NCBI GenBank assembly: GCA_964447415.1
Contig: CAYUSN010000001.1
Span: 33,735-97,734, forward strand
Length of the DNA stretch: 64,000 nt
From: an uncultured Candidatus Saccharibacteria bacterium
GTDB taxonomy: Bacteria > Patescibacteriota > Minisyncoccia > Phycocordibacterales > EsbW-18
Reading direction: 5' to 3'
The position numbers and the translations under genes are program-made. This document shows positions 1,225 through 18,948 of this stretch, one piece after another. The notes below the pieces were generated by a model. That model was not told the origin of the DNA, ran no database searches, and saw nothing but the letters and a program-made list of their open reading frames with translations. Each line of letters opens with the position of its first letter. Within the stretch, counting starts at the first letter, position 1.

Positions 1225-1971
1225 TTATATATTAACCACAACTTCTTGGTTTCTAAAATAAAACTTTAATTTATCCGCCAAAACCTCTACTTTGATTGCC
1301 TCACCCTTTTCCGTTAAATCCTTATTCTCTCTAATACTGTGTGCAAGATACAATTCTAAAACTGTGTCGAGCCATTCCCCGTGTGTTATCAATGCGAGTT
1401 TTTCATTCCCACCTTTTCTTTGTCGGGCTATCTCAATTATCCTCTTCAAAAAAGTTTCTACTTTCCCCCTATATTCTTGAATATCCTGTGTTGTTGGATT
1501 TTCTAAAGTTCCCATTCTAGATTTCAAGTAGTAGTCACTTTCCTGTTTAAGCCTTCCCAAAACTTCCGTCATATCTGACAAATATTTTTCCTTATCTCCC
1601 TGTTTCTTATAGATGTTTGTTTTTTCCTTGTCCAACATCTCTACGTTACTTAAACTCTGTCTCCCACCCCCAAGTCTAATCACCTCGTGCCCATGCTGAT
1701 TAAGGGCATCTTCTATGATTTGGGCAGAATTTTGGGCTCGGACTCGTGGGCTCATCATAATATAAACCTTATCTTGCTCCTGAATCTCATTATTTATTCT
1801 TTCCGCCAGATCTTGGATTTGCATTTTACCTTTCTCAGTCAAATCATTCTCTGACCCTGGGTCAGAGAACTCCTCTTTATATTCAGTATCTCCGTGCCTA
1901 ACGATAAAAATCGTAGCGAACGGGACAGGTTCCTTTTCAGTTGATTCAATTTTGTTGAGTCCTCCCTCCAT
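1225..1971 (-). CDS. histidine phosphatase (phosphoglycerate-mutase-like) family protein
   Basis: 248 aa; N-terminal 'IFIVRHGDTEY' RHG catalytic motif; 3-nt gap to the downstream kinase gene implies an operon. Confidence 0.55.
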   Translation of the reverse strand: MEGGLNKIESTEKEPVPFATIFIVRHGDTEYKEEFSDPGSENDLTEKGKMQIQDLAERINNEIQEQDKVYIMMSPRVRAQNSAQIIEDALNQHGHEVIRLGGGRQSLSNVEMLDKEKTNIYKKQGDKEKYLSDMTEVLGRLKQESDYYLKSRMGTLENPTTQDIQEYRGKVETFLKRIIEIARQRKGGNEKLALITHGEWLDTVLELYLAHSIRENKDLTEKGEAIKVEVLADKLKFYFRNQEVVVNI

Positions 1972-17687: not shown

Positions 17688-17722
17688 ATAAATGTATGTT
17701 ATGTTGCGAGTAATACTGCCGG

Positions 17723-17794
17723 TGCTCTCGAGAGGAATCGAACCTCTATTACAAGCTCCGCAAGCTTGCGTCCTATCCGTTGAACGACGAGAGC
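17723..17794 (-). tRNA. tRNA-Arg (anticodon GCG)
   Basis: Reverse complement GCTCTCG..AACGGATAG..CAAGC-TTGCGGA-GCTTG..AGAGGTTCGATTCCTCT-CGAGAGC-A; a GCG anticodon is unusual (the usual bacterial one is ACG). Confidence 0.7.
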
Positions 17795-17828: not shown

Positions 17829-18287
17829 CTAGAACCCGAAAAGTTCAAGAAGTTTGTCGGAAAACGTTTCGTGTACCTCCGCCTCTTCAAGATACCGCGA
17901 GAGTGTTTCACGAACATCATCAGCATCAATCCCGTCGAGAAGAATCACGATATGCGGCATGGCAACTTTTCGCGACGTAAGCACAAGGCGGTTCGGAAAC
18001 AGATGCTCCTGCACCCAAAATGACTGGAGTGTTGCGTACGGAAAGAGTGTGGTATCGATTGCAATGCCGCGGTCTGTGATATCACACCTGACCATTTTCG
18101 GATGACGGAGCGCGTGCAAACCAAGCGCAACCGCGCCGATTGCAATTACAAGTCCGAACAGCAGATTACCAAACAAGATGGCCACCACTACCCCGCCGAC
18201 GGCGATAATACCGAGCCCCCAGAACCAGTCTGAGCTCCGCGGCGTATGCTCATATTCAAGCGCCTCCCACGACAAGTGCGTCTGCAT
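17829..18287 (-). CDS. membrane protein, hypothetical (start corrected to MQTHLSWEAL)
   Basis: The tracked 274-aa ORF runs antisense through two tRNA-type genes; downstream of ATG 18287 there are two TM helices plus a soluble domain. Confidence 0.45.
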   Translation of the reverse strand: MQTHLSWEALEYEHTPRSSDWFWGLGIIAVGGVVVAILFGNLLFGLVIAIGAVALGLHALRHPKMVRCDITDRGIAIDTTLFPYATLQSFWVQEHLFPNRLVLTSRKVAMPHIVILLDGIDADDVRETLSRYLEEAEVHETFSDKLLELFGF

Positions 18288-18353
18288 ATATATGTAAGCG
18301 TACCATGTTTGCGTGTTGCTCAAAGAGCGCTTTGTTAGTATCTTCTTGGTACT

Positions 18354-18441
18354 GGTAGGGTGGCGGAGTGGAGAAAAGCCGAACTGCTTCGGGTTTTGTC
18401 CGAAGTGAAGCGAGGTGGGAGACCACGGAGCCGCCCTACTA
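18354..18441 (+). ncRNA. tRNA-like element; its first 18 nt are identical to the adjacent tRNA-Ser but it is not a canonical cloverleaf (pseudo-tRNA or small structured RNA?)
   Basis: GGTAGGGTGGCGGAGTGG..., an 11-bp closing helix with the 3' end ...CCGCCCTACT-A, internal hairpins CTTCGG-GTTTTGT-CCGAAG and GTGG-GAGA-CCAC; no T-loop TTCGA and no D-stem. Confidence 0.3.
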
Positions 18442-18465
18442 GAAAACGGTCCGAGGTATATCGTT

Positions 18466-18552
18466 GGTAGGGTGGCGGAGTGGTCTAACGCACCTGTCTT
18501 GAAAACAGGAGTCCCTTCACGGGGACCGTGAGTTCGAATCTCACCCCTACCG
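18466..18552 (+). tRNA. tRNA-Ser (anticodon TGA), type II
   Basis: Acceptor GGTAGGG/CCCTACC+G; anticodon CCTGT-CTTGAAA-ACAGG; long variable arm; T-loop TTCGAAT. Confidence 0.8.
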
Positions 18553-18612
18553 CATAAATGAAGTACGACCGCCACATCGTGGCGGTCGTTGTGACATCCT
18601 GGAGGACACCAC

Positions 18613-18948
18613 CTAGCGGTCGGGCTTGGAGAGCACCTTCTGAAGCCCCGCAACCATCTGCTTGACCTTGGGGTCCTTCCGCCCCGATGGTTTGCGGCCG
18701 AGAACTTCGTTCTTGCTCAGCCGCCTGATGACATCGAACTTGTCCCCAAACACCGTGAACTGTAGCCGCGCATCCTTCTCCTGAGATCGGAGCGCGTACT
18801 GAGCTTCCACGAGTGTCACCTCGTAGCCGTCACGCGGCACACCGTCGCTGCACGGAAGGTTGTTCTTGATCGCCTCGTCAGTCCGACCCATACCAAGCCG
18901 CTCGTTTGTATATGCGTCGTGCGGCGCCACATAGTATCGAGTCATCAC
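18613..18948 (-). CDS. hypothetical protein
   Basis: 111-aa GC-rich ORF between the tRNAs and rpsT; no motif recognised. Confidence 0.3.
   Translation of the reverse strand: MMTRYYVAPHDAYTNERLGMGRTDEAIKNNLPCSDGVPRDGYEVTLVEAQYALRSQEKDARLQFTVFGDKFDVIRRLSKNEVLGRKPSGRKDPKVKQMVAGLQKVLSKPDR

Follow-up and report, generated by a model that had tools for sequence, protein, structure and literature searches.

A non-coding 112-bp insert that splits and restores tRNA-Ser(UGA) in a Patescibacteria genome and may derive from a selfish HNH cassette

Why does the beginning of a tRNA-Ser gene occur twice, 112 nt apart, in the genome of an uncultured member of the Patescibacteria? The locus lies in a 64,000-nt stretch of contig CAYUSN010000001.1, which is called the window here and whose positions are used unless another locus is named. 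An exact 19-nt direct repeat, TGGTAGGGTGGCGGAGTGG, is found in two copies only, at 18353-18371 and 18465-18483, and the second copy supplies the first 18 nt of an intact tRNA-Ser(UGA). A first-pass annotation had described the 88 nt opened by the upstream copy as a tRNA-like element and suggested a decayed duplicate, a regulatory RNA, or the footprint of an integration or excision event. We find a 112-bp non-coding insertion at D-loop position 18|19 of tRNA-Ser(UGA), not a tRNA. The duplicate of tRNA nt 1-18 renders the insertion harmless, as a complete tRNA stands after the insert. The explanation that we favour, with a probability of roughly 55%, is that the insert is a derivative, lacking an open reading frame (ORF), or a companion of a selfish HNH cassette, and that it is transcribed together with the tRNA, as a 5' leader that RNase P cuts off. 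The parts of the insert and its target are as follows.

18354-18371, forward strand: direct copy of tRNA-Ser nt 1-18 (GGTAGGGTGGCGGAGTGG), from the exact repeat; its 3' end is the conserved D-loop GG.
18370-18401, forward strand: hairpin P2, 14 positions, identified by covariation; 5' arm 18370-18383, loop CTGC 18384-18387, 3' arm 18388-18401.
18402-18424, forward strand: linker motif GA-nn-GAAG-S-GAGGTGG-R-AGA-Y-C, identified in alignments; it holds the 5' strand of helix P3 (GGTGG, 18414-18418).
18420-18439, forward strand: inverted copy, AGACCACGGAGCCGCCCTAC, an ungapped match of 16/20 antisense to nt 2-21 of the intact tRNA.
18442-18465, forward strand: spacer from the insert core to the intact tRNA, GAAAACGGTCCGAGGTATATCGTT, conserved in loci L005 and L008.
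18466-18553, forward strand: intact type II tRNA-Ser(UGA) with a long variable arm, called by ARAGORN and scoring 63.6 bits with the Rfam tRNA model.

The insert can be written as 18354-18465 or as the register-equivalent 18372-18483, since the register is ambiguous within the repeat; between the repeats lie 94 bp of unique DNA without a conserved ORF. ARAGORN and Rfam agree with the first-pass description of a duplicated 18-nt start whose second copy begins a type II tRNA-Ser, and neither makes a call over 18354-18441, so the upstream element is not a normal tRNA that had been overlooked. With the Rfam 15 covariance models, the element matched no curated RNA family at the gathering score. A local search at E<=10 gave no tRNA match either, and its best result was noise (mir-1225, E 0.38). 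Homologous inserts, and the inserts at tRNA-Arg that are described below, were likewise without an Rfam match (16 loci at the gathering threshold, 8 in E-value mode).

Could the element nevertheless be a tandem tRNA-Ser duplicate in decay? Its 88 nt are the length of the tRNA, its first 18 nt are the same, and its 3' end, CCCTACT-A, resembles the CCCTACC-G of the tRNA. However, the interior has no residual likeness to the D, anticodon, variable, or T arms (the lack of a D-stem and T-loop had been noted before), and it is conserved and covarying across clades, with P2 kept by compensatory changes. What looks like a 3' acceptor strand does not copy the 3' end: it belongs to a 20-nt segment that repeats tRNA nt 2-21, from the 5' end, in inverted rather than direct orientation. 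The length of homologues ranges over 93-139 nt, so tRNA length is not kept. We disfavour a pseudogene as scarcely credible.

Several other identities were considered and set aside. The rod shape beside tRNA-Ser suggested the RNA of the signal recognition particle (4.5S), but there was no Rfam match at E<=10 and no GGAA/AGCA domain IV motif. The UUU in a GUUUUGU loop could be taken as the anticodon of an allo-tRNA, a tRNA-Sec-like molecule, or a T-armless tRNA; that hairpin is unconserved, and no tRNA model matches. An intrinsic terminator at 18379-18392 was rejected, as its U-run pairs inside P2 and homologues lack it. A 37-codon ORF can also be read at 18360-18473, from a GTG at tRNA nt 7-9 of the upstream copy to a TAG that the intact tRNA supplies at its nt 3-5. 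In L005, the equivalent frame is open for 52 codons to the anticodon TGA. Early stops in L008 and L087 make it unlikely that this frame encodes a protein.

If the element is not a tRNA, is it an insertion? We gathered 91 related loci (numbered with an L) through a 152-aa membrane protein encoded beside the insert, and then ten more. In L091, where the neighbouring protein is 99% identical and the upstream DNA identical, the promoter-like block abuts GGTAGGGTGGCGGAGTGGTCTAACGC and exactly the 112 bp are missing. The insert is therefore of the presence/absence type between near-identical strains. Further empty loci are L090, L003, L007, L009, L052, and L089, and L008, L005/L006/L050, and L087 are occupied like the window. 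The pattern recurs in another clade, whose marker protein is only about 40% identical; there, L029/L030 are empty and L025, L026, L032, and L067 are occupied (137 bp) with identical flanks; L043 versus L028/L041 is a third empty/occupied pair. Other Campbellbacteria, as well as a distant clade of Paceibacteria, carry homologous inserts at this position of the tRNA. Every occupied locus has an insert that starts with nt 1-18 of its own host tRNA (with one mismatch in L005), followed by an intact tRNA. The element is conserved, and not a duplication scar without any conservation.

A partial and a complete tRNA copy thus stand as direct repeats around DNA that empty-site relatives lack. This is the classic signature of integration into a tRNA gene (PMC9897764), and the repeats could in principle be the attL and attR sites left by an internal deletion of a prophage or integrative element. 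Against such a scar, a mere 94 bp separate the repeats, and several clades conserve this stretch as a unit; it is the 5' end of the tRNA, up to the D-loop, that has been duplicated; and no integrase is listed in the gene tables of the fetched loci, nor does the element itself hold an integrase, a recombinase, or kb-scale cargo. We regard an integrase-mediated island scar as very improbable. Nor does the element behave as a miniature inverted-repeat or other multicopy transposon, for which several copies, terminal inverted repeats, and a short target duplication would be expected. Profiles of the unique part, run with nhmmer over the 64-kb window and loci L001-L092, found the tRNA-Ser site alone, and direct or inverted repeats of at least 10 nt flank none of the six further tRNAs in the window. 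A multicopy repeat was rejected on these grounds.

In one locus, the same insert seems to have decayed further. At 1321-1360 (reverse strand) of L086, a 40-nt leader, CAGTGGAGCAAAAGACCCATTATTGCTACACTAGGTTTAC, lies between the conserved promoter and a foreign-type tRNA-Ser, and the last part of the tRNA 5' copy and the beginning of the P2 arm are still present in it.

What, then, has been entering this gene? In L001/L002 and L088, the interval from the native promoter to tRNA-Ser consists of a decayed relic of the tRNA 5' end, an ORF for an HNH endonuclease, and a foreign-looking tRNA-Ser(UGA). An endonuclease gene is therefore found in relatives at the same site of the same target gene, the arrangement of a homing cassette. 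The product exceeds the cut-offs of both Pfam HNH and Pfam HNH_3, and it belongs to a family of more than 541 homologues, which are roughly 60-67% identical. The HNH genes of L093-L100 and L101 lie elsewhere than this locus, yet directly upstream of tRNA-Ser(UGA). In 4/4 independent contexts, the gene is directly upstream of or overlaps tRNA-Ser(UGA) and starts within a tRNA-Ser 5' relic.

L001, 2434-2892, reverse strand: HNH ORF, 11 nt upstream of tRNA-Ser(UGA).
L093, 1501-1980, forward strand: HNH ORF; in L093-L100 it lies 6 nt upstream of tRNA-Ser(UGA).
L088, 907-1404, reverse strand: HNH ORF, overlapping tRNA-Ser(UGA) by 36 nt; its stop is the anticodon TGA.
L101, 1501-2004, forward strand: HNH ORF, overlapping tRNA-Ser(UGA) by 35 nt; its stop is the anticodon TGA.

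The HNH start codon is an ATG or GTG made by tRNA nt 7-9 of the relic. The sequence reads GGTCGA-ATG-GCT-GAG in L088 (compare GGAGAGATGGCTGAG in the tRNA), GGCTTA-ATG-CCT-GAG in L093, and GGATTA-ATG-AGT-GAG in L101. Among 32 family members, the N-terminus reads M-x-E-(x)-Y-K/R-R-N-P-N-T, in which M-x-E fits the tRNA-derived ATG-nnn-GAG. Over-extended gene calls read WYTG.., the translated -10 region TGGTATACTGG, and in at least 10 of the 32 members the C-terminal tail translates the tRNA-Ser 5' end (e.g., GGLRRMVRH, RRVGRTVMRES, EGWQNG). In many database entries for this family, promoter or tRNA sequence has been translated into an extra stretch at the N- or C-terminus. The end of the relic, at about nt 15-16, falls within 2-3 nt of the junction in the window, which indicates that the HNH gene inserted long ago at the same point of the D-loop and is now carried along with a tRNA-Ser. 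L001 has a relic, GATAGGGTGAGTGAGTG, then AATAAG and CCCTAC, and then HNH codons; L086 has a truncated relic, CAGTGGAGCAAAAG (compare GAGTGGAGAAAAG in the window), and a foreign tRNA-Ser. To judge by their sequences, these two look like intermediates.

Both the absence of the 112 bp from a near-identical strain and other relatives and the HNH gene in the same interval elsewhere support the first-pass suggestion of an integration or excision footprint at tRNA-Ser. Under the explanation that we favour, a selfish insert lineage would occupy this exact site in Parcubacteria/Paceibacteria. Its coding form would be a gene for a small putative endonuclease of the Zn-ribbon/HNH kind, expressed from the tRNA promoter, and the copy in the window, which lacks an ORF, would keep the split-and-restore architecture together with P2, P3, and the inverted copy of the intact target. 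The putative endonuclease would cut unoccupied tRNA-Ser alleles, and repair would copy the cassette in, with tRNA-Ser kept functional by the duplication. Decay of the ORF would follow. Finally, the remnant could be lost precisely through recombination or slippage between the 18-bp direct repeats, leaving an empty site like that of the sister strain.

A number of observations weigh against this scheme. P2 and P3 were found in no HNH cassette, and the typical cassettes (L093, L101) run from the relic straight into the ORF, so that the P2/P3 module may be a separate element. The cassettes of L001 and L088 bring about 35 nt of their own upstream sequence and a foreign tRNA-Ser, whereas both flanks in the window are native. 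The spacer GCCCTACnnnA(G/A)AAC does resemble the first HNH codons of L001 and L088. Its match to the HNH 5' end is 12/15 nt in L001 (GCCCTACnnnAGAAC) and 12/14 nt in L088, with p of 0.01-0.04 before correcting for 28 comparisons, and this continuity of sequence is only suggestive. The unique part has no second copy in the 64-kb window or the other loci, and its mobility is deduced from distribution alone. Lastly, lineages differ deeply in P2, yet nearly every one of them has two identical 18-nt copies. Together with an inverted segment that matches the local tRNA, this calls for repeated target-copying insertion, gene conversion, or selection for RNA pairing.

Does the structure of the insert help to decide what it does? 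The minimum free energy (MFE) fold of the 88-89 nt is a rod of -42.9 kcal/mol closed by an 11-bp terminal helix (element nt 1-11 with 77-87, G1.U87). Its z-score is -5.4, and 0/200 shuffles were as stable. The complementary strand has a z-score of -5.4 likewise; with both strands equally unusual, the statistic is silent on the strand and on whether RNA or a DNA inverted repeat is concerned. Across homologues, P2 has 12-14 bp, starts at the D-loop GG, and carries a CTRC loop, and it is present in the MFE fold of all homologues. In seven sequences, 96.8% of cells pair and 6/14 pairs have changed on both sides; the score was reached by 0/500 shuffles, and slid registers gave 33-58%. In the window, P2 has two G.G mismatches, and the fold that contains it is 1.1 kcal/mol dearer than the MFE fold (-41.8 versus -42.9 kcal/mol). 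This covariation is no proof of an RNA function, because a DNA palindrome can gain compensatory-looking changes by templated mutation.

The linker reads CGAAG-S-GAGGTGG-R-AGA in the Campbellbacteria type, and the other type has two extra hairpins. Helix P3, (A)GGTGG/CCRCC(T), is found in 8/8 sequences, some with U.G and others with U-A. Its 3' strand (CCGCC, 18431-18435) lies in the inverted copy, as does most of the 3' strand of the terminal helix (18430-18440). The inverted copy (element nt 67-86) spans the 18|19 junction, and a match of this quality was reached by 1/300 shuffles. It tracks the local tRNA, as seen in the TCT, TCGATT, and TTGAAG variants. L025, L028, and L041 have an exact 10-11-nt antisense of their own tRNA nt 15-24/25, which differs by host. 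The spacer is 12-25 nt long across homologues.

These comparisons refine the structures drawn in the first-pass annotation. The 11-bp terminal helix is in the MFE fold, and it is the upstream copy paired with the inverted copy; it occurs in the window, L008, and L005 but is absent from the L087, L025, and L028 types, and it belongs to the inverted repeat. The 6-bp CUUCGG/CCGAAG hairpin with its GUUUUGU loop forms in the window, but it is unconserved (42.9% of cells pair), and the same is true of the GNRA hairpin GUGG-GAGA-CCAC, which forms in the window and is unconserved in homologues. A tRNA-derived regulatory RNA or a switch may be present. Mutually exclusive pairings are available to CCGCC, which is complementary both to the core GGTGG, forming P3, and to nt 6-10 of the upstream copy. 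The proposed CCGAA/UUCGG pairing is part of P2; the GUUUUGU hairpin as drawn is not conserved. Alternative conformers of the insert are possible in the predicted folds.

A conserved promoter-like block lies upstream of the insert.

18316-18344, forward strand: promoter-like block, TTGCTC at 18316-18321, 17 nt, and TATCTT at 18339-18344, with TAGTAT at 18336-18341; identified by conservation and position.

This block, TTGCTCAAAG..CTTTGTTAGTATCTTCTTGGTACT, precedes the insert in the window and the tRNA itself in insert-free relatives, and it is nearly invariant in an alignment of six loci. A sigma-70 consensus scan gave no match in it, and on conservation and position we infer that it acts as the promoter. 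A promoter within the spacer was rejected, as neither the consensus scan nor inspection found a -35/-10 pair there. With the conserved block upstream and no detectable promoter in the spacer, the insert is most simply a 5' leader. A structured leader of about 112 nt would be transcribed from the upstream promoter, and an RNase P cut at 18466 would free the tRNA.

A host-selected role for such a leader would be another way to account for the structure. As a cis-acting RNA, it could tune the folding of tRNA-Ser(UGA), its processing by RNase P, or its level through competing pairings: the upstream copy with the inverted copy versus the inverted copy with the tRNA 5' end, and P3 versus the terminal helix. 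The compensatory changes that maintain P2 fit this idea, as does the inverted copy, which complements nt 2-21 of the downstream tRNA better than the upstream copy. The insert lacks its own promoter, hence is part of the pre-tRNA, and it persists in deep clades although it could be deleted through the 18-bp repeats. However, it is dispensable, as near-identical strains and many relatives do without it; the terminal helix is missing in the L087, L025, and L028 types; templated mutation of a DNA palindrome can mimic compensatory change; and no ligand-binding or known regulatory motif was found. We consider a host-selected leader RNA quite improbable.

Is tRNA-Ser(UGA) the only gene treated in this way? 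Inserts of a comparable build occur in many fetched loci, at tRNA-Arg(GCG) and 3' of tRNA-Ser. There, a copy of the last 16-22 nt of the tRNA lies 120-181 nt downstream, or a copy of its first 16-30 nt about 180-310 nt upstream, and an antisense copy of the adjoining tRNA segment matches the local sequence. They have modules in common with the element in the window, namely AA-CTGC-TT hairpins and a near-identical 13-nt GACCGAAGGGAGG in the 3' insert of another tRNA-Ser (L062). A Y-shaped core occurs at both tRNA-Arg and tRNA-Ser. The 3' inserts were located as follows.

3' of tRNA-Arg(GCG): L003 (3745-3930), L006 (828-987), L010, L011, L015, L019, L025, L053, L054, L056, L066, L070, L079, L081, L085, and L086.
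3' of tRNA-Ser(UGA): L028, L041, L056, L062, L081, and L089.

Very often, the 3' side of these tRNAs presents a terminator-like palindrome, an antisense copy of the tRNA's own T-loop to 3' end, the Y-shaped core of about 100 nt, and the direct copy of the last 16-22 nt. The core has the motif ..GGCGGGGTCGMGAACACTTAG..CTTAGTGATTCGTGACCGA and no Rfam match. On the 5' side of tRNA-Arg(GCG), a copy of nt 1-30 stands about 180-190 nt upstream in L021 and L070, and 16-nt copies stand at 188-207 nt in L029, L030, L033, and L043. The 5' insert contains an antisense copy of the anticodon-loop region (e.g., GGTACCGCAAAC in L070) and shares modules with one type of 3' insert (ATTGAGATATTTT...AAAATATCCAAT); L085 and L039 are further loci. 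In L083 (2540-2940, reverse strand), two tandem 3' units of the tRNA-Arg type, both of which have an AA-CTRC-TT hairpin and a 3' end like that of tRNA-Arg, were seen in a 3.4-kb locus in which no tRNA was detected, and in L080 (1300-1440, reverse strand) a similar core lies at the usual place of tRNA-Ser. Such modules can therefore occur apart from an intact tRNA. In the window, tRNA-Arg(GCG) (17721-17794) and the other five tRNAs are flanked by no insert of this kind.

These loci lend themselves to an interpretation without a homing cassette. P2 and P3 could form their own unit, a small non-autonomous mobile element from one of several related families that enter tRNA loops (the D-loop, anticodon stem/loop, or T-loop) and regenerate the tRNA by a direct copy. 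A guide-like antisense copy would pick the site by nucleic-acid pairing, and the HNH gene would merely share a favoured site. The like architectures at tRNA-Arg(GCG) and the tRNA-Ser 3' end, with direct and local antisense copies at many loci, speak for this, as do the modules shared between families (AA-CTGC-TT hairpins and GACCGAAGGGAGG), one 3' core at both tRNA-Arg and tRNA-Ser (L089), copies without an adjoining tRNA (L083, L080), and antisense segments that occupy a hairpin loop and follow the sequence of the host. On the other hand, no known enzyme is a candidate, the tRNA-Ser 5' type has no second copy beyond this site, and repair or template switching can also yield direct and inverted target copies with no guide needed. 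Scans for a phage or viral origin gave nothing: phage records and one of two pattern scans of viral contigs had no match, and the sole match of the other scan was due to chance, inside a coding sequence. An independent mobile element is a tentative alternative that we hold to be unlikely. A doubtful, still more speculative proposal is that of an undescribed class of small structured Patescibacteria elements, of which the insert in the window would be one visible member. These would insert at D-loop 18|19, anticodon stem 30|31, or T-loop 55|56; a local copy would always regenerate the tRNA, an antisense copy of the target would guide or template the insertion, and HNH would perhaps be cargo or a partner enzyme.

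The divergent neighbour at 17832-18287 (reverse strand) encodes the 152-aa membrane protein, whose few named homologues are from Candidatus Campbellbacteria (Parcubacteria/Paceibacteria, candidate phyla radiation). Close relatives keep the order pilM, tRNA-binding protein, ruvX, tRNA-Arg(GCG), membrane protein, tRNA-Ser(UGA), rpsT, ruvA, mur ligase. One further feature lies downstream of the tRNA.

18565-18589, no strand assigned: perfect 11-bp palindrome, ACGACCGCCAC/GTGGCGGTCGT, between the convergent tRNA-Ser and a 111-aa ORF; likely a bidirectional terminator.

The 3' side of tRNA-Ser differs between the window (18554-18948) and L091 (422-814), with a different terminator palindrome and a 111-aa versus a 121-aa ORF, so both flanks of the tRNA-Ser gene vary between close strains. 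The 111-aa ORF had no Pfam match.

If the favoured explanation is true, selfish DNA can live in an essential, presumably single-copy tRNA gene of a minimal genome by duplicating the part that it interrupts. Its coding form would be unusual in borrowing the promoter of the tRNA, an internal start codon, and even the anticodon as a stop. If antisense segments direct insertion, this would be a new guiding mechanism. In practical terms, tRNA fragments and mis-extended HNH ORFs recur in Patescibacteria genomes and are a hazard to annotation, and the inserts are natural presence/absence markers for population studies of these uncultured bacteria. In a limited text search of open-access papers, neither these inserts nor the HNH-tRNA-Ser arrangement turned up; in particular, the search did not find a tRNA restored by duplication rather than splicing, an ORF running from a tRNA relic to the anticodon, or a tiny structured non-coding derivative with an inverted copy of its target.

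How does the insert compare with known systems? Duplications caused by integration usually fall, reportedly, at an anticodon-loop, T-loop, or 3' sublocation (Williams 2002), and they are reported to take in the 3' portion of the gene. It is well established that integrated elements can be flanked by partial duplicates of a tRNA, which then bound islands on the kb scale (PMC9897764). Like the attL/attR islands described there, the locus has its inserted DNA between a partial and a complete tRNA copy of the same orientation. It is unlike them in that the inserts are non-coding and 94-121 bp long versus at least 9 kb, what is duplicated is the 5' end up to the D-loop, there is an extra inverted copy of the target, and there is no integrase. 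The guide sequences of IS200/IS605 elements and the bridge RNA of IS110 (PMC11208160) offer a likeness by analogy only: an internal target-complementary segment that sits in a hairpin loop and tracks the local target. Unlike these elements (PMC11208160), the insert has no transposase, and its 18-30-nt target duplication is not made by those families.

Group I introns are common in the anticodon loop of Patescibacteria tRNA genes, where they are self-splicing and mostly without endonuclease genes (PMC13011429). They are comparable as selfish RNA-structured inserts in tRNA genes of the same phylum. Our insert has no match to the Rfam group I model (Intron_gpI, RF00028) and lacks the group I core, is far smaller, and is bypassed by duplication rather than spliced. 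Group I boundaries are also impossible here, because the last base of a 5' exon and the last base of the "intron" are the same repeat position and cannot be U and G.

A further comparison is with homing endonuclease genes and their cycle of degeneration, a textbook subject. Free-standing or intron-borne HNH and GIY-YIG genes are known, such as segB of phage T4 in a tRNA gene cluster. As in those systems, a small HNH gene is tied to one conserved target gene whose function is preserved, occupied and empty alleles are found among close relatives, and remnants without an ORF stand at the same site. Unlike them, there is no intron or intein splicing, and part of the tRNA (nt 1-18) or the whole of it is duplicated instead. 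The HNH ORF described here also departs from them in borrowing the tRNA promoter and a relic start codon and, in some members, the anticodon as its stop.

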